Of a stretch of DNA of 64,000 bases, positions 23,753 to 39,125 are shown in pieces. This stretch comes from Actinomycetes bacterium (GTDB lineage: Bacteria; Actinomycetota; Thermoleophilia; BMS3ABIN01), in the NCBI GenBank assembly GCA_021791195.1, contig JAJYXB010000008.1, positions 10,921-74,920 of the forward strand. The letters are read 5' to 3'. The translations under genes and the position numbers were made by a program. The first letter of the stretch is position 1; every line of letters starts with the position of its first letter. The notes beneath the pieces were generated by a model. The model was not told where the DNA came from. It searched no databases and saw only the letters and a program-made list of their open reading frames with translations.

Positions 23753-24907
23753 CTACCTGTAAGCCACGGGCGCGTCGCGCAGAAAATCATTAAAGCGCCC
23801 GGCGACGATCGCCTGCCTGGCTCTACGGGTCAAGTCTACCAGAAAAGTGACATTGTGTAGAGACAGCAGCTGCAGGCCGAGGATCTCCTTCTGCGTGATC
23901 AGATGGCGGAGGTAGGCGCGGCTGAAGCTCTGGCAGGCGTAGCAGCGGCAACCGGGCTCCAGGGGACCGTCCTGCAAGGCATGAACGGCGTTGCGCAGGT
24001 TGAGGCTGCCGTCTGAGGTGAAGGCGCGACCGTTGCGCGCCACCCGCGTCGGCAGCACGCAGTCGAACATGTCGATGCCGGCGGCGATCGCCTCGAGGAT
24101 GCCGGCAGGATCGCCCAGCCCCATGAAGTAACGCGGCTTCTCCGCCGGCAGCAGGCCGGCGGTGAAACGCATCGTCTCCAGCATCGCTGCGCGCTCCTCA
24201 CCGACGCTAAGGCCGCCCAGCGCATAGCCGCCGAAACCGAGCTCAATAGTGCGCTCGGCGCTCTCGCGGCGCAGATCGAGGTCGGTGCCACCCTGGACGA
24301 TGCCCATCAGCAGCTGATCTTCGCGTGCCTGCGCCCGCCGGCAGCGGCCGGCCCACTCCGCCGTGCGCAGCACTGCCTGGCGCAGATATCCGCGGTCGAC
24401 TGCGGCCGGGGGGCACTCGTCGAAACACATGATGATGTCCGCGCCGAGCCGCTCCTGGACCGCGGTGGCCATCTCCGGGGTGAAGAAATGAGCCGAGCCG
24501 TCATAGAGCGAGCGGAACTCGACGCCGTCCCCCCTGATGCGGGCCGTCTCCCCCAGGCTGAATACCTGGAAGCCGCCGCTGTCGGTGAGGATCGGACCTT
24601 CCCAGGACATGAACCGGTGCAGGCCGCCCATAGCCGCCACCGTTTCCACCCCGGGACGGAAATAAAGATGATAGGCGTTGGCGAGGATGACGCCGGCGCC
24701 GGCTTCGGCCAGGTCCCGCGGCGAGAGCGTCTTCACCGTCGCCCGGGTGCCGACCGGCATGAAACAGGGGGTCTCCACGGCGCCGTGCGGGGTCATGAGC
24801 ACAGCGGCGCGCGCCTCGCCCTGGCGGGCCTCGATTTCAAAGGAAAACGGGTTCACGACAGGTTCTATCTTAGCTGAAAACCCGGCCGGGCAGCCCGGCG
24901 CATGCAC
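23753..24907 (-). CDS. tgt: Queuine tRNA-ribosyltransferase
   Basis: TGT family zinc site (CxCxxC...H) and catalytic Asp motifs. The N-terminus may begin at VNPFSFEI. Confidence 0.9.
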   Translation of the reverse strand: MHAPGCPAGFSAKIEPVVNPFSFEIEARQGEARAAVLMTPHGAVETPCFMPVGTRATVKTLSPRDLAEAGAGVILANAYHLYFRPGVETVAAMGGLHRFMSWEGPILTDSGGFQVFSLGETARIRGDGVEFRSLYDGSAHFFTPEMATAVQERLGADIIMCFDECPPAAVDRGYLRQAVLRTAEWAGRCRRAQAREDQLLMGIVQGGTDLDLRRESAERTIELGFGGYALGGLSVGEERAAMLETMRFTAGLLPAEKPRYFMGLGDPAGILEAIAAGIDMFDCVLPTRVARNGRAFTSDGSLNLRNAVHALQDGPLEPGCRCYACQSFSRAYLRHLITQKEILGLQLLSLHNVTFLVDLTRRARQAIVAGRFNDFLRDAPVAYR

Positions 24908-24931
24908 GGAATTATCCTTCTACCGGTTTTC

Positions 24932-25888
24932 ATGTTACAATCGCCAAGAATGTTCCTCCACGGTAGCAAGACAATCATCGCGGTAATAGCCATCGCAGCG
25001 GTAGTGCTCGGATTCATCGGCTTCAATTCCCTGCAAGGCAACAACGCCTTCAGGATTCCGGCTGCCGTGTCCTTAAGCAAGGGAGCCGGCACCCCCTCGG
25101 GCCCGCCGTCCGCGCCATCGCCGCTGGCGGCAGCCGCAGCCCCGGCGCCCGCTGCGCGGCCAGCAGCCACACCAGCAGCCGTCCCCGCCGCGCCCACCAT
25201 TGGCAAGTACGCGGTCATCATCGGCATCGACTACGACCATTACGATTTCGGTGCGGTCCACTACGCCGACCAGGATGCCGGCAGCGTGTACCGGATGCTC
25301 ACCCAGCAGAAGGGCTTCCTGCCGCAGAACATCAGGCTGCTGCAGAACAACCAGGCGACGCACGACAACATCATGTCGGCGCTCAGCTGGCTGGTGACCA
25401 ACCCCGGGATCAACGCCAACTCCGAAGTCGTTTTCTTTTACAGCGGGCACGGACTGCGCAACGGCGCGGGCGCCGGCCTGAACATTCCCGGCTTCCCGGC
25501 GGCTTCGGCGCTGGTGCCGTTCGACTTCTACAATTATGACTACCACAAGGGCGATGGTCTGATCTGGGATGGTGACCTGGCCGACAAGCTCTCGCTCATC
25601 CATCCGCACCTGATGTGGGTCTCGATCGACAGCTGCTTCGCCGGCGGCTTCGTCCGCCCGGGCATCGCCGGTCCCAACCGCATCATCACGACCTCCAGCC
25701 AGGCCGACGAGCTTTCCAACGAGCTGCCCAGCGCCCAGCGCGGCGTGTTCACCAATTTCCTCGTCGATCAGGGCATAGACAGGGGACTGCCGATCGAACA
25801 GGCTTTCTGGGGCGCCTTCCAGCAGTCGCAGGCCTACCATCAGGATCCGCAGATCTCCGACAACTACCCCCAGAGCGGCGACCTCTAG
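24932..25888 (+). CDS. Membrane-anchored caspase-like cysteine protease (peptidase C14 domain)
   Basis: N-terminal TM helix, a Pro/Ala-rich linker, then a caspase His (FFYSGHGL) / Cys (SIDSCFAGG) dyad. Alternative starts at 24902 or 24950. Confidence 0.7.
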   Translation: MLQSPRMFLHGSKTIIAVIAIAAVVLGFIGFNSLQGNNAFRIPAAVSLSKGAGTPSGPPSAPSPLAAAAAPAPAARPAATPAAVPAAPTIGKYAVIIGIDYDHYDFGAVHYADQDAGSVYRMLTQQKGFLPQNIRLLQNNQATHDNIMSALSWLVTNPGINANSEVVFFYSGHGLRNGAGAGLNIPGFPAASALVPFDFYNYDYHKGDGLIWDGDLADKLSLIHPHLMWVSIDSCFAGGFVRPGIAGPNRIITTSSQADELSNELPSAQRGVFTNFLVDQGIDRGLPIEQAFWGAFQQSQAYHQDPQISDNYPQSGDL

Positions 25889-25892
25889 ACAC

Positions 25893-25917
25893 CGCCCGGG
25901 TCTTATTACAGCAGCAG
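25893..25917. repeat. 25-bp direct repeat, left copy (CGCCCGGGTCTTATTACAGCAGCAG), duplicating the queA 3' end
   Basis: Identical to 27254-27278. The pair flanks a 1.34-kb lower-GC insert. Confidence 0.75.
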
Positions 25918-26266
25918 GCCGGCCCGGTGCAGCCGCCCGGTCCGCCCTATCCCGCCATGACCAGGATTCTTCCGTGAGGGGTCGGTACCCCGAGACGGCA
26001 AATGGATGTCTGATCGCACGAAAATGTGGTGGCCCTTGAAAGACAGGTCAGGAAAGAGCACCGCTTGTTAACACGGTTGAAAAATTCATCCTGGGAGGAA
26101 ATCTCCGTTTTCCCCTTGACAAGTACTAATCATGGAGGTCCACTTTAGTCCAAAGGTCTTGCTACCTGGATTCTCGGCAACATCACGAACGTTAAGGGTT
26201 GCCGTGTCATCATTCCCATCCGATCTCGATTAATCCCCAGCTCTTGGATTAGCAAACTATCTTTTT

Positions 26267-26941
26267 CTACGGCTCATATCCGGGCAGGAAGACCCAGAGG
26301 TCTTTTGTTATGAGCCACTGGCTATTATCTAACTCCAGGGTGACCGTATGCTGCTCCGCGTTGCTACCACCGCCTTCATCACGATTATTATTGTAATCCA
26401 TATAGTAGGTTTCGCTATATATATCTACGACCACGGTTGCTTTATCGCCCTGGACTGAGATCCCCTTATAATCCATCTTTGTGATTGTGCTTTCGGATCT
26501 GCCCACGCCGGCTGCGGCCGATTGCATTTCCACGTCGATGGTGTGCTGTCTCTTTTGTAATTCGCCAGAGGCAGCACTAAAATACCTGTTAAGATTATCC
26601 TTTAATTCCTGACTACGGCCTCGATTCTCATATAGCAACGTATCTCTCTCCGCTTGAAAAGCATCATGGACGACTTGCATTAGTTGCTCCCAGGTCTTTG
26701 GATCACCCGCCCATTCACGATCGCTCGGGTCATATTTTGGGGGCGCCTCAGCCAGAATGTTGGCAGTATCTTTTCGCCCCTCGACTGTAAAAGTCTGACC
26801 ATTTTTTTTAACTGTAAATACTTTAATATTTTGCTGATATGTGTCGCTGGCAGCGCTGTCTGCATGGTGAATTAAAAAAAGCGTCAAGGCCAAAGCTCCT
26901 GCCAAAAATGTCGCTATTAGTGCAATTATTATTTTTCTCAT
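26267..26941 (-). CDS. Hypothetical exported protein (signal-anchor) within the lower-GC insert
   Basis: 224-aa ORF with an N-terminal hydrophobic signal and AT-rich codon usage unlike the host genes. Confidence 0.5.
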   Translation of the reverse strand: MRKIIIALIATFLAGALALTLFLIHHADSAASDTYQQNIKVFTVKKNGQTFTVEGRKDTANILAEAPPKYDPSDREWAGDPKTWEQLMQVVHDAFQAERDTLLYENRGRSQELKDNLNRYFSAASGELQKRQHTIDVEMQSAAAGVGRSESTITKMDYKGISVQGDKATVVVDIYSETYYMDYNNNRDEGGGSNAEQHTVTLELDNSQWLITKDLWVFLPGYEP

Positions 26942-26958
26942 CTATTTTCCTGGCGGAT

Positions 26959-27192
26959 TCAAGTCTGAAGTGCAACGGTTAACATGGTTGACGTTTTGAA
27001 TAATACTTCATACGGAGTTTTGAATCCAAGCTTTTTCCTAGGCCTATGATTCAATCGATGCTCGGCCTCGGCGATCTCGTCGTTGGTGATAGTGGTAAAG
27101 TCGTGCTTCTTGGGGGAGTATTGCCGGATGAGCCCGTTGGTGTTCTCGTTTAGACCCCGCTCCCAGGAAGAGTAGGGATGGGCAAGATGCAC
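26959..27192 (-). mobile_element. IS30-family transposase C-terminal remnant (truncated pseudogene)
   Basis: HPYSSWERGLNENTNGLIRQY...RPRKKLGFKTPYEV matches the IS30 integrase-core C-terminus. The DDE core and N-terminus are absent. Confidence 0.7.
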
Positions 27193-27253
27193 GAGAAGCA
27201 GATGGACATCCTGCGCTGCCTGGCGAGCAGATAGCAGGCAGACACAATCCGGG

Positions 27254-27278
27254 CGCCCGGGTCTTATTACAGCAGCAG
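27254..27278. repeat. 25-bp direct repeat, right copy; contains the queA stop codon
   Basis: Identical to 25893-25917. Confidence 0.75.
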
Positions 27279-28286
27279 CATCGCGTCGCCGAAGCTGAAG
27301 AAGCGGTAGCGCTCCCTGACCGCCTCGCCGTACAGCCGCCGGGTCTCATCCTCGCCGGCAAATGCCATCACCAGCGCCAGCAGGGTCGATCGGGGCAGAT
27401 GAAAATTGGTCAGCAGGGCATCCACGGCCCGGAACCTGAAACCGGGCGTGATGAACAGATCGGTGTCGCCCGCGAGCGGGCGCGGCGGTTCGCTGAAGAC
27501 CGTTTCCAGCGTGCGCACCGCGGTAGTGCCCACGGCCACAACCCTGCCGCCGCGTAGCTTCGCTTCCAGGATAGCCTTATAGCTCCCGGCAGGCACGCTG
27601 TAGCTCTCGCTGTGGATGGCGTGCAGCGAAAGATCGTCCTCGCTCACCGGACGGAAGGTGTCCAGACCGACGTGCAGTGTCACCGGAGCCAGCGCCACTC
27701 CCTGGGCTTTTATGTCAGAGATCAGCTCCTCAGTAAAGTGAAGCCCGGCGGTGGGCGCCGCTGCCGAGCCCGGCTCCCGCGCGTAGACCGTCTGGTAGCG
27801 CTCCGGCTCCCTGAGCTTCTCCCTGATGTACGGCGGCAGCGGCATCTCGCCGACCTGCTCCAGCAGCTCCCCCGTCGCCAGCCGGCTGCGGTTCCGGACC
27901 AGCCAGCGGCCCTCACCCAGCCGCCGCTGCAGCTCGAAGACCGGTTCGGACTCCGTGTCGACTTCAAGCCGCATGCCCTCGCTCAACCGGGCGGAGGGCT
28001 TCAGCAGCGCCTCCCAGATCTTTGCCTGCCGCCGGCGCAGAAAGAGGATCTCGACGCGGCCACCCGTGGGCTTGCGGGCGAAAACCCGCGCCCGCAGCAC
28101 GCGCGACTCGTTGTAGGCAAGGATATCCCCCGGGCTCAGGAAAGCCGGCAGGTCGCGCATCTTCCGGTGCTGCAGCCGGCCGCTGGCGCGCTCCCAGACC
28201 ATCAGGCGGCTGCTGTCGCGGGGGACCAGCGGATGCTGCGCGATCAGCTCCGGAGGCAGGTGGTAGTCCAGCTCGCTGGTGAGCAC
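27267..28286 (-). CDS. queA: S-adenosylmethionine:tRNA ribosyltransferase-isomerase
   Basis: QueA family N-terminus MLTSELDYHLPPELIAQHP and full-length similarity. Confidence 0.95.
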   Translation of the reverse strand: MLTSELDYHLPPELIAQHPLVPRDSSRLMVWERASGRLQHRKMRDLPAFLSPGDILAYNESRVLRARVFARKPTGGRVEILFLRRRQAKIWEALLKPSARLSEGMRLEVDTESEPVFELQRRLGEGRWLVRNRSRLATGELLEQVGEMPLPPYIREKLREPERYQTVYAREPGSAAAPTAGLHFTEELISDIKAQGVALAPVTLHVGLDTFRPVSEDDLSLHAIHSESYSVPAGSYKAILEAKLRGGRVVAVGTTAVRTLETVFSEPPRPLAGDTDLFITPGFRFRAVDALLTNFHLPRSTLLALVMAFAGEDETRRLYGEAVRERYRFFSFGDAMLLL

Positions 28287-28289
28287 GGC

Positions 28290-28859
28290 TTACGTCCGCC
28301 CGCTGGACGCCGGCTTCGCCCGCCGCGGCTTCGCGGCCGCTTCCGCCTCGCTGTAGATGCAGCCGCAATATTTCTGCCGGTAGAGCCCGGCCGCGCGCGC
28401 AAGCTCGATGCTGCGGCGGTATGCCGGCCTCAGATCGCGGTAAGCGAACCCGACCCCCGCCTCCCGGCCGGCGCGCTCGCCTTCTTCCCGGATGATCTCG
28501 TGCTGCTGGTAAGGGCTCACCAGCAGCGACGTGCTGAATCCACTCATGCCGGTGGCGGCGGCCAGCTGCGCCGTGTGCTCCAGCCGCTGGCGGATGCAGA
28601 GGCGGCAGCGCGCCGGACCGGTGTCGTTGCCGGCCACCATCCGCAGCCAGGTTGTGACATCATATTCCGGCTCACCGATCAACGGCAGCCGGATCTTGCT
28701 GGCGTAAGCCAGCAGCGTATCGTAGCGGCGCTGGTGCTCGCCCAGCGGCTGGATGTTGGGGTTGAAATAGACGCCGGTCAGCCGGACGCCGTCCTGCCGC
28801 CAGGCCTCGACAGTGGCGGTGGAGCAGGGCGCGCAGCAGATGTGAAGCAGCAGATCCAT
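28290..28859 (-). CDS. queH: Epoxyqueuosine reductase QueH (DUF208)
   Basis: LLLHICCAPCS and CGCIYS Cys motifs. The ORF extends to 28895, but the conserved start is MDLLLH at 28859. Confidence 0.85.
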   Translation of the reverse strand: MDLLLHICCAPCSTATVEAWRQDGVRLTGVYFNPNIQPLGEHQRRYDTLLAYASKIRLPLIGEPEYDVTTWLRMVAGNDTGPARCRLCIRQRLEHTAQLAAATGMSGFSTSLLVSPYQQHEIIREEGERAGREAGVGFAYRDLRPAYRRSIELARAAGLYRQKYCGCIYSEAEAAAKPRRAKPASSGRT

Positions 28860-29000
28860 TGTCCGTAAAAGAGGATTCCCTGCAAATTCTAGCAAAGCCC
28901 GGCGCCAGCGGTAACAGCGGCGTCACTTCCTTTTTCCGCATCCGGAAGGGACACGGCTCCTCCGTCCGCCGGCGGCTCCCCCGGCAGTACCGCGGCAGTT

Positions 29001-30152
29001 TTGACTTTCCAGGACCGTTTCGCTAATCTCATCTGGTTCGTGACTCCTTCCGGAAAGAAGCTCGCCTCGATACCCGGCCGATACAACAGATGGATAACTG
29101 TAAGCCTGATTATTCTTCTGGTACTTGCCATCGTGTTTGTCGCCTGGGCAGTCTGGCGCTCGCGGCAGCAGCCGGCGGCGACCGTCGCCACCGTGGCGAC
29201 AGCCACAACCGCCACCACACCGCCTCCGCCTGCGCCGCTTACCTATAGCTGCCCGCTCGACGGCTCCCAGACCACCGACCGGAGCAACACCATGAACCGG
29301 CCGCTGGTGGTGCAGATCGACAACGCGCCCGCGGCGCGGCCGCAAGCGGGCCTGAGCCAGGCCGATATCGTCTACGAGGAGATGGCTGAAGGGCAGATCA
29401 CCCGCTACAACGCCGTCTTCGCCTGCCATGACGCCGCCAGCGTGGGTCCGGTCAGGAGTGCGCGGCTGATCGACCTGGAGCTGACGCCCGAATACGGCGC
29501 CCTGCTGGTTAATTCCGGCTCCAGCCAGGGCACGGCCGCCAGGCTGAGGGCCGCCGCCGCATACGTTCCCAACATGACCGACAGCAGCTTTCCCGCCGCC
29601 TTTCACCGCGTCAACGACCGCTTCGCGCCGCACAACCTGATGACCAGCACAGCGGCGCTGCGCAAAGCCGCCGCCAACGGAGGCCTGTCCGTGCAGGCGA
29701 ACATCGTGGGACCGACGTTCAAAGCGGACTCGCCCCCGGCCCAGGCCCAGGTCACCAAAATCTCGGTCCCCTACTCGCCCTGGGCCAGCGTCAGCTACAC
29801 ATACGACGCCGGCAGCAACAGCTGGCTGCGCTCCGTGGACGGCCAGCAGCAGAAGGACGCCGCCAACGACCAGCGGATCGCGCCCAAGAACGTCATCATC
29901 CAGTACGTGCGGGTGACTACCAGCAATATCGTCGAGGATGCCAGTGGCGAGCGGGGTCTGGACTTCACCCTGACGGGCAGCGGCAAGGTGCTGGTCTTCC
30001 GGGACGGGCAGGTAATCAGCGGTCAGTGGCAGCGGCCCGGGAGGGATGACGTCACAACTTACGTGGATGCCAGCGGCCAACCGATCCCGCTGGACGTGGG
30101 GCAGACCTGGGTACAGGTGGTGCCGACGGATTTCAAGGCCAGCTGGAGCTAG
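29001..30152 (+). CDS. DUF3048 (YerB-like) membrane-anchored lipoprotein-like protein
   Basis: N-terminal TM helix, a TVATVATATTATT low-complexity linker, then DUF3048-like N- and C-terminal domains. Confidence 0.7.
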   Translation: MTFQDRFANLIWFVTPSGKKLASIPGRYNRWITVSLIILLVLAIVFVAWAVWRSRQQPAATVATVATATTATTPPPPAPLTYSCPLDGSQTTDRSNTMNRPLVVQIDNAPAARPQAGLSQADIVYEEMAEGQITRYNAVFACHDAASVGPVRSARLIDLELTPEYGALLVNSGSSQGTAARLRAAAAYVPNMTDSSFPAAFHRVNDRFAPHNLMTSTAALRKAAANGGLSVQANIVGPTFKADSPPAQAQVTKISVPYSPWASVSYTYDAGSNSWLRSVDGQQQKDAANDQRIAPKNVIIQYVRVTTSNIVEDASGERGLDFTLTGSGKVLVFRDGQVISGQWQRPGRDDVTTYVDASGQPIPLDVGQTWVQVVPTDFKASWS

Positions 30153-30163
30153 GCAAGGAAGCT

Positions 30164-32530
30164 TCAGTTCCCCGTATCCAGCTCCGGCTTGCCGGTCGCC
30201 AGCACGCTTTCGGGCGCACCGGCCTCTTCCTCAACCGCGGCGGCATCCCGCCGGCAGAGTTTCGACGGCCACCAGTTCCACCTTCCCAGCAGCACCACCA
30301 CGGACGGCACCAGCAGCGTGCGGACGAAGAACGTGTCGAGCATGATGCCGAAGGCGATGGCGAAGCCGATCTGCTCCACCTGCGGGTTGCCACCGCTGAT
30401 GCCCAGCACGAAAAAGGTGCCGGCCAGTATCAGTCCGGCCGATGTGACAGTGCCGCCGGTGACGCTGATGGCCCTGGCCACCGCGTCGCGCAGCGATACA
30501 TGGTTGTGGGCCTCTTCGCGGATGCGGCTCATCACCAGGATGTTGTAATCCTCGCCTAATGCCATGGAAAAGACGAACATCAAAAACGGCAGGATGAAGT
30601 TGAGTCCTCCCTGCCCGCCCCAGTGGACGAACACGATCATCGCGAACCCCAGTGAAGAAATGTAGGAAAGGCCGACGGTCGCGATCAGATACCAGGGGGC
30701 GACCAGGCTTCTCAACATCACCGCCAGCAGCGCCGCGATGATCACCAGGACGATCGGGACGATGCGCCACAGGTCAGAGGTGGCCGCGCTGCTGACGTCG
30801 AAGGCGGCGGCATCCTGGCCGGCCACGCCGTTTTTGGCGGCGCCGACATCAGCCGCGACCCGGTTCAGCTGCGCCCGCACATCCGGGACCGCATGCATCG
30901 CCTCACTGGAGCCGGAGGCGCCCGCGCTCAGCTGGCCGTAAAACTGCACCGTGCGGCCATCCGGGCTGATGAACTGCGCCGTCGAACGGTAGAGCTGGTA
31001 GACCTGGATGGGCGTAACACCGGCAGGTAATTTCAGCTCCGCGAGCGATTTCAGTCCCGGAGAAGGCACTGGCGGCAGCGAAGCCGCCGGACCCAGCAGC
31101 TCATGCAGACGCGACAGCTGCTGCGGCGTCAGCGATGCCTTGCCGCCGGCAAAGGGTCCGCCGACGGTGCTGAACACCGGCGAGGCCTTCAGCTCCTGCT
31201 CCGCGGTGACCACGACGGCGAGGTTGTTCCAGACCGGCTGGCTGAAAGTGAGCAGCAGGCTCTCGGGATTGTTGTTGGCCGCCGGGAAATGCCTGGCGAG
31301 AACCGCCGTTCCCTGGGCGGAGTCGCTGCCGGAGCTGTTGGAGCTGTTGTCGGAGAAGCCGGTCGTCTGGTAGCCGGCGATACCGGCCGCCAGAGCGCCG
31401 AACAGGACGATGCCGAGAATCAGCGTCACCACAGGATGCCTGACGATGCGTACCGCCAGCCGGCCCCAGAGCCCGCTCTTCTGCGGCCGCTTCAGGTTGG
31501 ACGGCCAGAAAACCGCCCGGCCGAACACCGCCAGCAAGGCCGGAAGAAAGGTTAGCGCCGCCAGCAGCATCACGGCCAGCCCGATTGCCAGCCCCGGGCC
31601 GATCCCCTTGTAGATGCCAAAAGTGGCCAGCAGCAGGCTCAGCAGCGCCGCCATGACGGTAAAAGCGGAAAAAGTAATCGATTCACCCACGCGCGACATC
31701 GCCCGGACCACCGCGTCCCTGGGCGCCAGTCCGCGGCGCAGCTCCTCGCGGACACGGAATACCAGGAACAGGCCGTAGTCGGTGCCCGCTCCCAGGATGA
31801 GCACGATCAGCAGGATCTGCGTGATCTCTGAAACCTGCAGCCCCAGCTTGGTGGACTCGGCGATCAGCGGCCCGGAAAGCGCCAGCGAGATGCCCGCCGG
31901 CAGCAGCGTCACCAGCGGCGCCATCAGCGAGCGGTAGACGATCAGCAGCAAGATGATGATCAGCAGGATCGAATAGTTCTGGGCGGAGCTGCGGGAACGG
32001 TCGCCGGTAGCGTTGGCATCCACTGACTGCGCCAGCCTGCCGGTGAGGTGGAAAGCCAGTCCCGGCGGCGCTCCAACCTGGTTGAAAGCAGCGCGGATAC
32101 TGGAGACGACTGCCTGGGCCCCGGCGCCGAAATCAGCGTTGACGCCCACCATCGCCTCACCGGCCTGGCCGTCCGCCGAAACCCCCTGGTCGCGCACGGT
32201 GCTGACTTCGGGGATCCTGGTCACAGCCTGCTCCAGGCGCGTGACCGCCTGCTGGTCCGCCGCAGTCAGCGGACCCGATGCCCGCTCCACGACGATAGTC
32301 GACGTCGAAGTGGTCTGCTTGCCCTGGAATGGCCCTGCCTGCTGCGCCGCCTGCACGCTGGGCGAACCGGCCGGCAGGAACTGCGAGTTGTTGGACTGGG
32401 TGACGCTTGACAGGGACGGCAGCTTCTTGATCACCACCGGCACGGCGATGATCCAGGCGGCGATCACCAGCCAGCGGAAGCGGACGGAAAAACGGGCGAG
32501 GGCGCTAAACACGGGCGCTCCTCGCATCAC
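30164..32530 (-). CDS. MMPL/RND-superfamily membrane transporter (MmpL/YdfJ-like)
   Basis: 788-aa product with two 6-TM bundles, each following a soluble loop. Confidence 0.9.
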   Translation of the reverse strand: MMRGAPVFSALARFSVRFRWLVIAAWIIAVPVVIKKLPSLSSVTQSNNSQFLPAGSPSVQAAQQAGPFQGKQTTSTSTIVVERASGPLTAADQQAVTRLEQAVTRIPEVSTVRDQGVSADGQAGEAMVGVNADFGAGAQAVVSSIRAAFNQVGAPPGLAFHLTGRLAQSVDANATGDRSRSSAQNYSILLIIILLLIVYRSLMAPLVTLLPAGISLALSGPLIAESTKLGLQVSEITQILLIVLILGAGTDYGLFLVFRVREELRRGLAPRDAVVRAMSRVGESITFSAFTVMAALLSLLLATFGIYKGIGPGLAIGLAVMLLAALTFLPALLAVFGRAVFWPSNLKRPQKSGLWGRLAVRIVRHPVVTLILGIVLFGALAAGIAGYQTTGFSDNSSNSSGSDSAQGTAVLARHFPAANNNPESLLLTFSQPVWNNLAVVVTAEQELKASPVFSTVGGPFAGGKASLTPQQLSRLHELLGPAASLPPVPSPGLKSLAELKLPAGVTPIQVYQLYRSTAQFISPDGRTVQFYGQLSAGASGSSEAMHAVPDVRAQLNRVAADVGAAKNGVAGQDAAAFDVSSAATSDLWRIVPIVLVIIAALLAVMLRSLVAPWYLIATVGLSYISSLGFAMIVFVHWGGQGGLNFILPFLMFVFSMALGEDYNILVMSRIREEAHNHVSLRDAVARAISVTGGTVTSAGLILAGTFFVLGISGGNPQVEQIGFAIAFGIMLDTFFVRTLLVPSVVVLLGRWNWWPSKLCRRDAAAVEEEAGAPESVLATGKPELDTGN

Positions 32531-35899: not shown

Positions 35900-36156
35900 T
35901 TATTCCTCCGGGGTCGGATTGGCAGTTGCGGCGCGCGGGACCGCCGTAAGTGCCGCTGGCAGCCGCCGGCAAGCGCCGGAAATCGCTCAGGTAATAATAT
36001 AACAGAGGCGGCGGACGTGCAGAGCAGCCCTCAGCTCACGGAAGGATTAGACACTTACCTTGCCAAATTCGATAATTATCTTTTTTTGCAAGCATTGCCG
36101 CACGGGTCATGAAGCACATTCCACTACGGCGCACCCTAAGCCCGGACGGATAAACG

Positions 36157-36426
36157 TTAGCCCTCGATCTTCAGCTCCATGTCGGGAATCGCTGATGCGA
36201 TCCGCTTTAGTTGGTCCGCGCTGAAGCCGTTACCGTAAAGTCCCATGAAAATCTTCCCCTTCAGCTGCGCTGCGGTGATTCCCGGGTCTTGCCTCCTGAT
36301 GCCGATCTCCATCAGTTGCTTGGCCGTCTCGAACATGTCGCTGGCCATCTGAAGGCGCTCGGCGGGAGTGCGCTCGGTAAACATTGAGAGCCACAACTTC
36401 TCTACGGCGGGTGGGGTGTCACGCAT
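36157..36426 (-). CDS. Hypothetical 89-aa protein, partner of the upstream nucleotidyltransferase-fold gene
   Basis: Overlaps the upstream gene by 8 nt. Lower GC. No recognised domain. Confidence 0.4.
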   Translation of the reverse strand: MRDTPPAVEKLWLSMFTERTPAERLQMASDMFETAKQLMEIGIRRQDPGITAAQLKGKIFMGLYGNGFSADQLKRIASAIPDMELKIEG

Positions 36427-36970
36427 TCTGCTGAGCCTTCCTTAACAAACCATCCACTTCGAGCCGTTTGGCCCATTCATGGAGGTAATCGTAGTCGAGC
36501 TTTTCGTGGGCTTTCAGAATCTGCTCGACATACCTCATCTGAAATTCCGGTTCGGAGTCCTTTGCCCAAACAAGCTTGGACAGAATAAGGTCTTCCGCCG
36601 CGACGACCGTAACCGGGACATCGCCCATCTCGATTCGCTGTCTGCGCGAGAACTCCCTCAGCCGGTAATCCTCGTCCTTTCTCACGATGAAATCGAATTT
36701 GACCGCCGATTCGGTGTGAATGATGTTGAACATGTCATGTCGCGCAATCGCTTCCCGCACGGCATGTTCATCGATGTAGAAGTCTTCCTTAAAAATTCTT
36801 ACGAGTTTGTCAACTAGTTCGGAAGAAATGTGAAGCACCATGTCGATGTCCCTCGTCATCCTGGGGGCCGAGTAAAGTGACATTGCAATGGAGCCGGTGA
36901 GCATATAATCGATGCCCGCTTCGTCGAGTCTGGACGTTACAACTTTTAGCAGATCGAACTCGGTGGTCAT
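36419..36970 (-). CDS. Nucleotidyltransferase-fold protein (minimal NTase/Lnu-like: GS...DIDMV)
   Basis: DYMLTGSIAMSLYSAPRMTRDIDMVL matches the Pol-beta superfamily hG[GS]...DxD signature. 183 aa. Its start overlaps the stop of the truncated HEPN ORF. Confidence 0.5.
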   Translation of the reverse strand: MTTEFDLLKVVTSRLDEAGIDYMLTGSIAMSLYSAPRMTRDIDMVLHISSELVDKLVRIFKEDFYIDEHAVREAIARHDMFNIIHTESAVKFDFIVRKDEDYRLREFSRRQRIEMGDVPVTVVAAEDLILSKLVWAKDSEPEFQMRYVEQILKAHEKLDYDYLHEWAKRLEVDGLLRKAQQNA

Positions 36971-37182
36971 GGCTTAATGCTTGGTCGGATCAGTCCCGCT
37001 GCCTGAGCTCCTCCAGAAACCTTGCTTGCGGCCTCACCGATAATCTCAATGGATTTAATGAGCGAAAGTGTCAACTTTCGGTCCGCGTCGAGATCGCTTC
37101 TTGTCTTGCCAGATATAAATGAAACAGCCTCGCGGGCTGAATCGAGCATGTGGCGAAGGCGAATGATATCGTCAGGCAGCAT
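36967..37182 (-). pseudogene. Truncated HepT-like HEPN (DUF86) toxin gene lacking the C-terminal Rx4-6H motif
   Basis: IIRLRHMLDSAREAVSF...LSLIKSIEIIGEAASKV matches the N-terminal two-thirds of DUF86. The ORF ends exactly where the 183-aa gene starts. Confidence 0.5.
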
Positions 37183-37480
37183 ACTGAACTTCAGCCTCAG
37201 CGATGACGTCATCGCGAAAATAACGACTCAGATCCTCGGGTGTGCGCAGATCCGCTTTTCTGCCCAGCATTTCGGAAAGCTCCCGCTCCATGCGGGCGAG
37301 ACGGATAAAACCCGGAACATGACCTGGCTCGAACTCGACCAGCACATCGATATCGCTGTCGGGCCGGAAGTCGCTTCGCAAAACAGATCCAAAGAAGGCG
37401 AACTTGCGGATATGATTGCTGCGGCAAAAGTCGGCAATCTTTGACTTGGGAATTTCGATCTTTGGCTTCATCGATGTCAT
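37172..37480 (-). CDS. MntA-like minimal nucleotidyltransferase (antitoxin-type)
   Basis: [24 protein letters not shown] is the classic MNT motif. The ORF is open to 37696 with a GC-rich 72-aa N-terminal extension of unclear status. Confidence 0.6.
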
Positions 37481-37734
37481 TTCATTATCAGCACAAAAGC
37501 GGTGGCCACATTGATGGGTCTCGTTGTAAGCGGGGCTCTTGTAGGCGGCTTCGTTGTTGCGGAAGTTTTCCACCAGCTCGGCGATGCGGGCGCGGGTTTC
37601 GGCGGGCACTGCCAGACGCGGCGTTTCCTCGGGCGCATTTGGCGCGGCTTGCCGCGCTCCCGTAGACGCATCCATAGCTTGGCCGTCAGTTGACATGAAG
37701 CAATTATATCACCAGGCGCGGACGGGCTCGGGAA

Positions 37735-38355
37735 TTATTGCTTCCTTTTTGCCGGCGCCTGCTTCTCGGGAGCGCGCTTCTTCTTTGCCGGCGCCTCGGG
37801 ATTCCAGTGAAATCCGATCTGATTCTTCTTCGGCTTCGGGGGTTCCATCAGTTGGCGGATGGCTTCGAAGACGACGCGGAATTGGGCATCGTATTTCTTC
37901 TCCAGCGAGTCGAGTTTGCGGGCCAGATCTGCGTGCGAGTAGGAAATCCTTTTCAGGCTGACAAATGCTCTCATGATTTCGATATTGACGCTAATTGCCC
38001 GCTTGCTCCTGAGAACACTCGAAAGCATCGCAACACCTTGTTCGGTGAAAGCGTAAGGCAGATACTTAGCATGCCGGCCGCGCTGGGAATCACCCGGTAA
38101 ACCCGTGGCGGTGGATGAGAGGTTTTCTGACGCAAAGAAGCTTTTGGCCTTTAATGCCGTTAATTCCGCCTTTAATAGCTGGAACATGAAATCATCCGGA
38201 AACCTCTCAATGTTCCGTTTGACAGCCTGGATCAATACCCGATGTTCGACTTCATAGAGCCGGGCCAGGTCATCGCTCAACATTACCTTGTTTCCACGTA
38301 GAACAACGATCTTTTTTTCAACGACTTCTTCCGAAACAATTGCAATTTCTTTCAC
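37735..38355 (-). CDS. ORF6N (KilA-N-like) domain DNA-binding protein
   Basis: [42 protein letters not shown]...[15 protein letters not shown] matches the ORF6N domain. GTG start with GGGAGG Shine-Dalgarno. Lys-rich tail. Confidence 0.75.
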
Positions 38356-38385
38356 CGCGTCCTCCCTTTTGATGATTCTCTAAGA

Positions 38386-38398
38386 TCACAAATTGTGA
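38386..38398. promoter_or_regulatory. Palindromic operator-like site TCACAA-A-TTGTGA upstream of the ORF6N gene
   Basis: Perfect 6-bp half-sites located 31-43 nt upstream of the GTG start, in an AT-rich spacer. Confidence 0.4.
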
Positions 38399-38564
38399 CC
38401 TTAAAAAAGCCTTTTCCAGATAAAGGAGATCATATCTGCTGGGCCGGACGGATGTTGTCAGAGGCGGCGACGGGAAGGTTCTTTGCTTCACTCGGGATGG
38501 CACAGGGCAAGGAGGGGTCTACCGGGTAGATATCCGGTCTAAATATACGGCCTTGAATTATTGC

Positions 38565-38996
38565 CTACCCCGGCATCAGCGCCGCGATGCCCTTTGGCAG
38601 CGCCGCCCTGATCTTCTCCACCTCGCCGTGGTCGAGATGCAGCGTGATCGTTTCCAGCACGGTGCTGGTCATGCGCCTGACGTCGAGCCCCTCATCACGG
38701 TCATAGATGAAGCGCCGTGCGATCTCATCGAGGAACTCCTGCCGGTTCATCTTGACCGGCACACGGGCGGGCGCCCAGCCCTCGTAATAGATGCCCCGCA
38801 CCAGCTCGGGCAGCTGGGCGCCGAGGCTGGCGGCGGCGTTGACAGGCAGCCGGTCCCTGAGTGTGTGCAGCACCACCCTCATGGCCAGCAGCGCCTCGTC
38901 CGGCCGGCCCTGCCAGCCCATCTCCCGCTCGATCTCCGAGAGGATGCGGTTGGTCTTTTCGACTGTGGTGCTGATCGCGGCAACGTTCTCAGCCAT
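38565..38996 (-). CDS. DUF2267 domain protein
   Basis: 143-aa product with the DUF2267-like pattern (LPELVRGIYYEGWAP). Confidence 0.7.
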   Translation of the reverse strand: MAENVAAISTTVEKTNRILSEIEREMGWQGRPDEALLAMRVVLHTLRDRLPVNAAASLGAQLPELVRGIYYEGWAPARVPVKMNRQEFLDEIARRFIYDRDEGLDVRRMTSTVLETITLHLDHGEVEKIRAALPKGIAALMPG

Positions 38997-39125
38997 GATG
39001 GCCTCCCCGGTAGCTGTGGATAATCCCTTAAGTGGATTATGGCCGGCAGGCGTCTGGCCAAACCTGGGAGTCGGGAAGGAAGCGGGAGGTCGGTTCAGGC
39101 TGGCGGGTGGCAGGCCAACCCGTGC

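Follow-up and report, generated by a model that had tools for sequence, protein, structure and literature searches.

A predicted exported metacaspase-like protease encoded between tgt and queA in a clade of uncultured Thermoleophilia

The protease gene and its neighbours

The window, a stretch of 64,000 nucleotides, carries a gene for a caspase-like protease at positions 24950..25888 of the plus strand, encoding 312 amino acids followed by a TAG stop, as delimited by the open reading frame list, the PF00656 match, the family alignment and a codon check. Two in-frame ATGs lie upstream, at 24932 and 24902, and the longest open reading frame covers 24902..25888 (+). An earlier reading made from the letters of the DNA (the sequence-only reading) had placed the start at 24932, where an ATG is indeed present and would give a 318-aa form. 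However, most family members begin at the Met equivalent to 24950 in the alignment (consensus MxxxxxKT), and the gene call in a relative with 98% identity comprises 312 aa from the same Met, so that 24950 appears more likely as the start than 24932. The dN/dS ratio against this relative was 0.32, but it was based on just 12 differences (6 synonymous and 6 non-synonymous), too few to carry weight.

The gene lies on the strand opposite to tgt, queA and queH, and yajC and secDF are also among its neighbours. The divergent neighbour is tgt, encoding queuine tRNA-ribosyltransferase (open reading frame 23753..24907, minus strand; PF01702 in relatives); its translation probably begins at the GTG at 24856, giving 367 aa, as the tgt products of relatives comprise 365-368 aa. 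On the other side, queA (27267-28286) and queH (28290-28895) are convergent with the protease gene and together occupy 27267..28895 of the minus strand, as assigned by open reading frames, the tblastn map, and PF02547 and PF02677 in relatives. A promoter-like site facing tgt (TTGTAA-18-GATAAT; 24911..24940, minus strand), just upstream of the protease start, was found as a consensus match only; the scan returned 2 overlapping matches against 0.3 expected.

The inserted segment next to the protease gene

Immediately downstream of the protease gene lies a perfect 25-bp direct repeat, CGCCCGGGTCTTATTACAGCAGCAG, with its left copy at 25893..25917, which flanks an insertion of 1,361 bp (25918..27278, including the right repeat copy at 27254-27278). 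The insertion is missing from the 98% relative (L001), in which the queA stop follows the protease stop by 18 bp. Two open reading frames were found within it, both on the minus strand. The first (26267..26941) encodes 224 aa with an N-terminal hydrophobic segment and belongs to no recognisable family, with no match in Pfam, NCBIfam, PADLOC, PHROGs or the PLSDB plasmids. The second (26959..27192) encodes a 77-aa C-terminal fragment of an IS30-family transposase, which matched NF033563 (transpos_IS30) with E=2.4e-21 over profile positions 217-267 of 267. The insertion is recent, foreign to the locus, and separate from and unrelated to the protease gene.

The sequence-only reading had correctly placed the gene on the opposite strand between tgt and queA beside a genuine foreign insert, as the open reading frames, the repeats and the empty site in L001 show. 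It also implied that the protease gene itself was foreign. A recently acquired gene belonging with the adjacent insert would fit its opposite orientation inside a conserved operon and its position beside a low-GC segment with an IS30 fragment. However, the GC content of the protease gene is 0.64, similar to that of the genome, compared with 0.46-0.52 for the insertion; the 98% relative possesses the gene and lacks the insertion; and the position and orientation are the same in relatives down to 46% identity. A foreign origin is thus refuted by GC content, the empty-site comparison and synteny, and we consider it almost certainly wrong.

Conservation and origin of the gene in the clade

The relatives examined comprised 17 species-level Thermoleophilia/Gaiellales-type genomes together with metagenome contigs, with protease identities of 46-98%. 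In 27/27 related loci the gene had one and the same orientation and lay between tgt and queA, with the order tgt(-) / casp(+) / [DUF6812][DUF1003] / queA(-) / queH(-); the gene implied to be foreign is therefore syntenic and conserved across relatives. Each genome has a single protease copy at this fixed locus, without peptide-transporter neighbours. In an independent sample of 80 metagenome loci anchored on tgt, the gene was present only in one close relative (L103), whose tgt is 73% identical. At loci where tgt showed no more than 62% identity, queA, where detected, shared the strand of tgt and lay directly upstream of it. In a neighbour-joining tree the clade was monophyletic and was sister to, not nested within, a group of archaeal and CPR proteins, and no direction of transfer was concluded. 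These comparisons show that the gene entered the ancestral queA-tgt-yajC-secDF operon a single time, in one Thermoleophilia/Gaiellales-type clade, and was inherited vertically from then on.

Genes for DUF6812 and/or DUF1003 proteins follow the protease gene in most relatives. Neither occurs in the window, in L001/L002 or in L012/L014, so they are not required, and the two were rejected as obligatory partners. The gene neighbourhood held no pointer to a substrate. The protease might be a lineage-specific, Ca2+-independent surface metacaspase coupled to export, having a short divergent control region in common with the tgt-yajC-secDF unit and acting in trimming or quality control at the Sec translocon; alternatively, it might form a small trans-membrane proteolytic signalling module with DUF6812 and DUF1003. 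We regard these proposals as improbable. The fixed gene order is the sole support for either of them, and synteny of the whole region explains that order equally well.

Protease domain and predicted fold

The PF00656 (Peptidase_C14) search assigned the protein to the C14 family with E=8.4e-10 and 39.2 bits against a gathering score of 21.4, matching residues 92-292 of the 318-aa form to profile positions 2-204 of 233; the same domain was present in 38/38 homologues. The catalytic domain is predicted to span residues 86-312 (25205..25885, plus strand), with p20-like and p10-like parts, on the basis of pLDDT, Foldseek and profile-to-PDB matches. His167 in the YSGHG motif (25448..25450, +; codon verified) and Cys229 in the IDSC motif (25634..25636, +) were invariant in 35 family members and aligned with the catalytic His and Cys of Arabidopsis metacaspase-4 (AtMC4) and yeast Yca1, where the Cys lies in DSCHSG. 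Cys229, within IDSCFAGG, is the sole Cys of the protein. D107, D109, S165, D227 and S228 were likewise invariant across these 35 sequences, which have 46-98% identity. The claim that the protein has the C14 caspase fold and that its His/Cys dyad is intact was thus borne out, although an intact dyad is no proof of activity, a caveat also made in the literature (PMC5756287).

In the AF2 model, pLDDT was mostly above 90 over residues 81-312. With this model as the query, Foldseek returned 303 PDB matches at E<=1e-3; the best were the metacaspases 7qp0, 9n3e, 4f6o and 8a53 (E down to 4e-13), followed by MALT1, GSU0716 and legumain. Metacaspases of types I and II come nearest to the predicted fold. 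The Foldseek alignments ran the full length of CgMCA1 and Yca1, with about 255 columns, and the C-terminal part gave a weak HMM alignment (1.7 bits) to Yca1 279-346 that includes a Q-x-P-Q motif. Since the C-terminal half is structurally aligned to the metacaspase p10 region, the label "p10-less" is doubtful for this protein.

No second domain besides C14 was detected by Pfam and NCBIfam scans of the protein, and the absence of a sensor or effector domain noted earlier from the letters was upheld by Pfam, NCBIfam and PADLOC, which found no CHAT, EACC1, NACHT or similar domain. The protein is classified as a single-domain metacaspase-like cysteine endopeptidase of MEROPS C14B type, with predicted peptidase activity.

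By analogy with legumain and GPI8, a surface-located protein with a clan CD fold might instead be a transpeptidase or ligase that attaches or processes surface proteins, and legumain (5lua) and GPI-transamidase (8imx) were indeed among the weaker Foldseek matches. Membership of C13/legumain was nevertheless rejected, as PF01650 (legumain/GPI8, C13) scored below threshold (E=0.17; 11.9 bits against 22.8). Moreover, both sequence and fold are clearly nearer to metacaspases, and no candidate substrate family was linked to the protein, making such an activity very unlikely.

N-terminal segment and membrane topology

The catalytic domain is preceded by a hydrophobic segment and a linker, as the sequence-only reading had noted. 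The hydrophobic segment (residues 8-25; 24971..25024, plus strand), TIIAVIAIAAVVLGFIGF, follows MFLHGSK and could be a signal anchor or the long h-region of a signal peptide. Its Kyte-Doolittle mean is 2.99 in a 17-residue window, and the AF2 model predicts a helix at residues 7-22. The linker (residues 26-85; 25025..25204, plus strand) is predicted to be disordered from its composition (19 Ala and 12 Pro in 60 residues) and a pLDDT below 50; in the family its length varies from 25 to 68 residues. The N-terminus has no zinc-finger motif and no Pro-rich/zinc-finger prodomain, the anchor and the Ala/Pro linker standing in their place.

A hydrophobic core of 17-23 residues was found in 32/35 family members. 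It lies within the first ~30 residues, and later than this only where the gene call extends upstream. The net charges flanking the core averaged +1.66 N-terminally and -0.28 C-terminally, and the N-side value was the higher of the two in 27/32 members. By the positive-inside rule and homology, the catalytic domain most probably faces outward, in agreement with the earlier proposal of an exported protease domain. If the host is a monoderm actinobacterium, as we infer, "periplasm" is the wrong word for this location.

A caspase homologue that is anchored in the membrane, faces the cytoplasm and acts in programmed cell death or in defence against phages would require an N-out/C-in or peripheral segment, whereas the flank charges favour N-in/C-out. 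Many bacterial caspase-like proteases do work in defence or cell-death systems, and the generic "caspase" model of PADLOC (PDLC02987) gave a weak match of 38 bits. However, this match covers only positions 4-157 of 453 and the partner genes are absent. The EACC1-associated caspase model of NCBIfam (NF047832) reached 34.4 bits, far below its cutoff of 140, with its partner domain absent from all loci examined, and PHROGs returned nothing. In addition, no CHAT, NACHT, TPR or gasdermin neighbour was present at the examined loci, and the gene occupies a fixed site in a conserved core-gene region and not a defence island. Assignment to a defence or cell-death system was rejected, and we hold a defence role to be extremely unlikely.

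A second alternative retains the outward orientation and makes the enzyme a fully secreted, soluble nutritional protease, whose signal peptide is cleaved and which digests environmental proteins for peptide uptake. Such a role has been proposed for the exported clan CD peptidases of sediment archaea, and the extracellular and intracellular peptidases that Thermoprofundales express include C14B members (PMC6461988). Signal peptides of the classical type occur in archaeal and CPR relatives (such as ...FAFVQA|QPQ), several family members carry AxA-like sites after the hydrophobic core (...ASVSA|EA and VALSRA|SQA), subtilase or beta-helix genes adjoin some archaeal loci, and the metagenome-assembled genomes derive from sediment, groundwater and subsurface samples. 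However, no good signal-peptidase site or convincing cleavage motif follows the 18-residue core in the window protein, the single copy at a fixed locus lacks peptide-transporter neighbours, and the Pro/Ala spacer is better suited to a tethered enzyme. Full secretion is therefore a rather unlikely reading of the window protein, although the anchored or secreted state may differ within the family.

Predicted specificity and calcium dependence

The S1 pocket of Trypanosoma brucei MCA2 (TbMCA2) is formed by Cys92, Asp95, Ser156 and Asp211 (PMC4357240). In the window protein, D109 (25274..25276, +; aligned with the D of GCxND in Yca1 and AtMC4), S165 and D227 (25628..25630, +; Cys minus 2, in the aligned DSC motif) correspond to Asp95, Ser156 and Asp211, respectively, whereas the equivalent of Cys92 is Ala106. 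Thus, 3/4 of the S1 residues are kept, including both Asp. The characterised non-caspase C14 enzymes all cut after Arg/Lys because of their acidic S1 pocket (PMC5756287). Since the acidic and polar S1 residues are retained, a trypsin-like specificity is expected and not that of an Asp-specific caspase, and the protein most likely cleaves after Arg/Lys. Arg236 and the invariant Arg244 are candidate positions for cleavage of the protein by itself.

The allosteric Ca2+ site of TbMCA2 consists of four Asp, namely Asp173, Asp189, Asp190 and Asp220 (PMC4357240). These ligands were mapped indirectly, by way of alignments to Yca1 and AtMC4 and by counting from the catalytic residues, not by a direct TbMCA2 alignment, and on this mapping only Asp207 of the ligand set is retained. 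The loop after the catalytic His is Gly/Pro-rich, with GHGLRNGPGxGLNxPG in place of GHGGQTEDLDGDEEDGMDD, and the Cys+7 position is Arg236 rather than Asp. Archaeal relatives keep the acidic residues of the Ca2+ loop and a DxNxDGxVTxEE insert, both absent from the window protein. With the Ca2+-binding Asp cluster replaced and the EF-hand-like insert missing, the activity is probably Ca2+-independent.

Comparison with known caspase-like proteases

The sequence-only reading had regarded a standalone exported caspase-like protease as an uncommon architecture, which was not supported. In the survey of Asplund-Samuelsson et al. 2012, 46/671 prokaryotic metacaspases consisted of an N-terminal helix and a caspase domain, an architecture identical to that of the window protein; transmembrane helices occurred in 15% overall, and the N-terminal helix may be a signal peptide (PMC3501461). 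This survey is older than the present Thermoleophilia genomes and did not define the specific subfamily, its synteny or the loss of the Ca2+ site. Our profile search also returned many proteins of 280-330 aa in which a signal peptide and a linker accompany a single caspase domain, mostly archaeal and CPR, from Bathyarchaeia, Methanomethylicia, Thermoplasmatota, Asgard archaea and Patescibacteria.

These archaeal and Patescibacteria proteins (L028-L074, P0042-P0188) are the nearest relatives outside the clade, with 28-34% identity, and have the same length and layout as the window protein. Unlike the latter, they keep the DGDxExxDE loop, the Asp at Cys+7 and the EF-hand-like DxNxDGxVTxEE element; they also lack the 6-residue insert after PFDF, and neither their genomic position nor any neighbour is constant. 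When 124 proteins encoded nearby at 35 archaeal and CPR loci were scanned against Pfam, no conserved partner emerged, the commonest families being Beta_helix (5/124) and Peptidase_S8 (3/124).

The best sequence and fold matches were type I metacaspases, namely Yca1 (4f6o), Candida glabrata MCA1 (7qp0) and TbMCA2, which have in common with the window protein the SGHG/DSC dyad, the acidic S1 pocket (equivalents of Asp95, Ser156 and Asp211) and an apparently short p20-p10 junction. The C-terminal Q-x-P-Q of the window protein aligned with QKPQL of Yca1. In contrast to type I metacaspases, the window protein has a membrane anchor or signal and an Ala/Pro spacer, no Pro/Gln-rich or zinc-finger prodomain, and a lost Ca2+-binding Asp cluster, with an identity of about 20%; moreover, type I metacaspases are cytosolic, whereas an extracytoplasmic location is predicted here.

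Among prokaryotic C14 enzymes, the predicted biochemistry resembles that of the orthocaspase MaOC1 of Microcystis aeruginosa (Klemencic et al. 2015), which is Arg-specific and Ca2+-independent (PMC5756287). Orthocaspases are by definition p10-less and cytoplasmic, whereas the window protein appears to have a p10-like C-terminal half and has a predicted export signal. Gingipain (C25), clostripain (C11) and legumain (C13) are, like the protein proposed here, exported clan CD cysteine peptidases with a caspase/hemoglobinase fold, but they belong to other families, and legumain was a weak fold match only. Gingipain R and clostripain are Arg-specific. To our knowledge, no exported C14 enzyme has been biochemically characterised.

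Proposed role and significance

Taken as a whole, the explanation that we favour, and consider reasonably probable, is an exported, outward-facing metacaspase-like protease with Arg/Lys specificity and Ca2+-independent activity, encoded by a clade-ancestral insertion. The Sec pathway would export the protease, and the hydrophobic segment would keep it attached to the cytoplasmic membrane's outer face, being cleaved as a signal peptide in some relatives. The flexible 60-residue Ala/Pro-rich spacer would allow the catalytic domain to reach the cell-wall zone, where His167 and Cys229 would act as the catalytic dyad and Asp109, Ser165 and Asp227 would form the S1 pocket. It probably serves to cleave proteins that are exported or belong to the cell envelope, or proteins from the environment at the cell surface.

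The finding is for the most part ordinary, in that many microbes have such a design and the lineage has long carried the gene by stable inheritance. Relatives are already named "caspase family protein" in public databases, and a literature search pairing Thermoleophilia with caspase found nothing relevant. The insertion into the otherwise near-universal queA-tgt-yajC-secDF operon was a single ancient event that marks an uncultured Thermoleophilia/Gaiellales-type clade and is usable as a synapomorphy. Compared with its archaeal relatives, the clade has lost all recognisable Ca2+-binding elements and kept the dyad and the S1 pocket, which makes it a natural test case for Ca2+ dependence and useful for studying how enzymes of the metacaspase type function outside the cell and in the absence of calcium.

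Gene structure and domain composition

The open reading frame of the metacaspase-like protease, between tgt and queA, spans 24902..25888 on the plus strand in the ORF list of the window. The start at 24932 taken in the sequence-only reading gives 318 amino acids. Most members of the family (35 aligned proteases) start at the Met that corresponds to 24950 (consensus MxxxxxKT). The gene of a 98%-identical metagenomic relative was also called from this Met, which gives 312 amino acids. Residues are numbered here from the Met at 24950. In Pfam, the protein matched PF00656 (Peptidase_C14) with E=8.4e-10 and 39.2 bits, above the gathering score of 21.4, and a codon check placed the catalytic His167 (YSGHG) at 25448-25450 and the catalytic Cys229 (IDSCFAGG) at 25634-25636 on the plus strand, confirming the C14 domain and the YSGHG and DSCFAGG motifs already noticed from the sequence. 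The N-terminal hydrophobic segment and Pro/Ala-rich linker described there were also borne out: residues 8-25 (TIIAVIAIAAVVLGFIGF) are strongly hydrophobic, and residues 26-85 include 19 Ala and 12 Pro among 60 positions. No further domains were found in the protease with Pfam or NCBIfam, and membership in a defence system was not supported by NCBIfam or PADLOC.

The longest tgt ORF, on the minus strand, begins at GTG 24907. A consensus match to a sigma-70 site (TTGTAA-18-GATAAT, minus strand, 24940-24911) lies just upstream of this codon and probably serves tgt. Because this candidate promoter would start transcription at or beyond GTG 24907, and the tgt proteins of relatives have 365-368 amino acids, the true tgt start is probably GTG 24856. 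The conserved ML(Q/E)S(P/S)RM extension upstream of some protease homologues may be promoter DNA and not coding sequence.

Synteny and origin of the locus

The comparison of loci covered L001 and L002, both 98% relatives, together with 17 species-level genomes and metagenome contigs at 46-63% identity. In every related locus examined, secF-secD-yajC-tgt lie on one strand with the protease divergent from tgt, followed by optional DUF6812 and/or DUF1003 genes on the protease strand, convergent queA-queH, and then DUF3048 and ruvB. The sequence-only reading placed the protease gene on the opposite strand within the tgt-queA-queH block, beside a foreign insert; its syntenic conservation across relatives contradicts the implied view of the gene as an anomaly of the locus. 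Such synteny shows conservation, which is not equal to a housekeeping function. Across relatives, identity was 50-66% for the protease, 71-77% for tgt, 72-88% for ruvB, 58-71% for queA and 56-70% for DUF3048; the protease thus diverges at a rate similar to queA and DUF3048, and somewhat faster than tgt and ruvB.

The loci found through the protease were complemented by an independent sample, the best 80 tgt loci. Only one close relative was among them (L103, tgt 73% identical), with the order queA, DUF6812, protease, tgt. The protease gene was absent from all the other best-80 loci (tgt at most 62% identical), in which queA, where detected, immediately precedes tgt in the same orientation, usually by 0-200 bp and by about 0.7 kb at most. 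The simplest explanation is that a single insertion placed a protease cassette in the queA-tgt-yajC-secDF operon of the ancestor of the clade (the Thermoleophilia/Gaiellales-type relatives carrying the gene at this site) and that inheritance was vertical from then on, in agreement with the monophyly of the clade in a rough NJ tree. The fixed position within the queA-tgt operon across the whole clade is a mildly notable feature.

The foreign insert reported beside the protease gene is real but separate from it. Two identical copies of a 25-bp direct repeat (CGCCCGGGTCTTATTACAGCAGCAG), at 25893-25917 and 27254-27278, delimit an insertion of 1,361 bp at the 3' end of queA. L001 has the protease gene and an empty site, with one repeat copy and the queA stop 18 bp beyond the protease stop. 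The GC content of the insertion is 0.46-0.52, compared with 0.64 for the protease gene. It contains a C-terminal IS30-family transposase fragment (77 amino acids) and a low-GC ORF of 224 amino acids with an N-terminal hydrophobic segment, for which no family match was detected. Since the repeat includes the last queA codons, queA remains intact. IS30 elements usually duplicate 2-3 bp, much less than the 25 bp seen here; a few members of the family, such as IS1630, make duplications of 19-26 bp.

Just past queH, the window encodes a DUF3048 protein with an N-terminal hydrophobic segment (29001-30152, plus strand), whose position is kept in nearly all relatives extending far enough (not detected in L022), and an MMPL-family transporter (30164-32530, minus strand) restricted to the subclade closest to the window. 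Farther on, the region 36000-39000 (GC 0.53-0.56 versus about 0.64) carries genes for an AbiEii-like nucleotidyltransferase, an NTP_transf_2 protein, an ORF6N-domain protein and a DUF2267 protein, and resembles a small islet of accessory or toxin-antitoxin genes.

A clade-specific subfamily of a widespread architecture

A standalone exported caspase-like protease had been considered an uncommon architecture, which was not borne out. The metacaspase domain stands alone in 398 of 671 prokaryotic metacaspases (Asplund-Samuelsson et al., PMC3501461), and when 1.84 billion representative proteins were searched with the family profile, 31,319 relatives reached E<=1e-3. Only three representatives, the clade itself, reached E<=1e-64, with the next scores dropping to about 1e-40. 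Many subsequent matches were 285-320 amino acids long and aligned to the profile end to end, and those inspected consisted of a signal peptide, a Lys/Pro-rich linker and a single caspase domain. Among species-representative genomes, the nearest relatives outside the clade share 28-34% identity and an identical layout; they come from Bathyarchaeia, Methanomethylicia, Thermoplasmatota, Nezha-, Had-, Thor- and Heimdallarchaeota, and Patescibacteria. Within the exported single-domain metacaspase-like proteases, the members from this clade form a subfamily of their own.

Additionally, the homologous loci L028-L074 and proteins P0042-P0188 represent a large, chiefly archaeal/CPR family of exported single-domain caspase homologues of 280-330 amino acids, with metacaspase-like acidic loops and an EF-hand-like DxNxDGxVTxEE insert. 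No biochemically characterised member of this family was found, and no conserved neighbour was found among 35 of its loci.

Fold, active site and loss of the calcium loop

Among proteins of solved structure, the best sequence matches were Arabidopsis metacaspase-4 (E=4e-6 from the protease sequence alone, 1.7e-13 from the family profile), yeast Yca1 and Candida glabrata MCA1. An AlphaFold2 model built from the 35-sequence alignment had pLDDT >90 over most of residues 81-312 and <50 over residues 1-80, where a helix at 7-22 was the sole predicted structure. Foldseek searches of the PDB with this predicted model ranked metacaspases at the top (7qp0 at 4e-13, then 9n3e, 8a53 and 4f6o), followed by MALT1 paracaspase, the uncharacterised Geobacter C14 protein GSU0716 and legumain.

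The 35 members (46-98% identity) share 46 invariant columns, including His167, Cys229, Asp107, Asp109, Ser165, Asp227 and Ser228. In TbMCA2, the S1 pocket consists of Cys92, Asp95, Ser156 and Asp211, and the allosteric Ca2+ site of Asp173, Asp189, Asp190 and Asp220 (McLuskey and Mottram, PMC4357240). Mapped through the Yca1 and AtMC4 alignments, the S1 equivalents are Ala106, Asp109, Ser165 and Asp227. Both acidic residues are thus retained, and every characterised non-caspase C14 enzyme cleaves after Arg/Lys owing to an acidic S1 pocket (PMC5756287), from which we infer a predicted Arg/Lys specificity.

Of the Ca2+ site, only Asp207 is left. GHGLRNGPGxGLNxPG stands where metacaspases have the acidic loop GHGGQTEDLDGDEEDGMDD, and Arg236 replaces Asp at the Cys+7 position. 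In direct alignments, the nearest non-clade relatives retain the DGDxExxDE loop and the Cys+7 Asp and have the DxNxDGxVTxEE insert; the clade lacks all three and has a 6-residue insert after PFDF instead. This loss of all recognisable Ca2+-binding elements is a mildly notable feature of the clade, and the protease, judged by its sequence, is probably Ca2+-independent.

Predicted export and possible roles

Orientation was judged by the positive-inside rule and homology. A hydrophobic core of 17-23 residues was present near the N-terminus in 32 of the 35 members. The other three are short gene calls; for one of them (P0016), the reading frame continues on its own contig (L017) into a complete hydrophobic N-terminus. 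The mean net flank charge was +1.66 on the N side versus -0.28 on the C side, with the N flank more positive in 27 of 32 members. Neither a lipobox Cys nor a twin-arginine motif was found, canonical signal peptides are present in more distant homologues (e.g., MKTKTILIASLFAITISLSLFAFVQA|QPQ), and the single Cys of the mature protein is the nucleophile. Together, these features place the catalytic domain most likely outside the membrane. A convincing signal-peptidase site after the core is absent from the window protein, but present in some relatives (e.g., ...ASVSA|EA), so that the protease could be either membrane-tethered or released. The related genomes are titled Thermoleophilia, Gaiellales or 'Actinomycetes'; a monoderm host would lack a periplasm, and the catalytic domain would then occupy the wall zone.

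In most relatives (L003, L005, L007-L010, L016-L027 and L103), the protease is followed on its strand by DUF6812, a small soluble protein in which a TTDDYEIEGFMHIKPGGYQSRVSDLLN motif is conserved, and/or by DUF1003, a predicted membrane protein. The three genes may form a functional cassette; the window and its nearest relatives lack both DUF genes. The locus gave no clue to the substrate. We consider it likely that the protease is a Sec-exported, membrane-tethered or secreted, Arg/Lys-specific and Ca2+-independent cysteine endopeptidase at the cell surface. A lone catalytic thiol fits the origin of these MAGs from anoxic sediment, groundwater and the subsurface. The protease may act on exported or envelope proteins of the cell itself, or it may break down protein from the environment, a role proposed for clan CD peptidases that sediment archaea export (PMC6461988).
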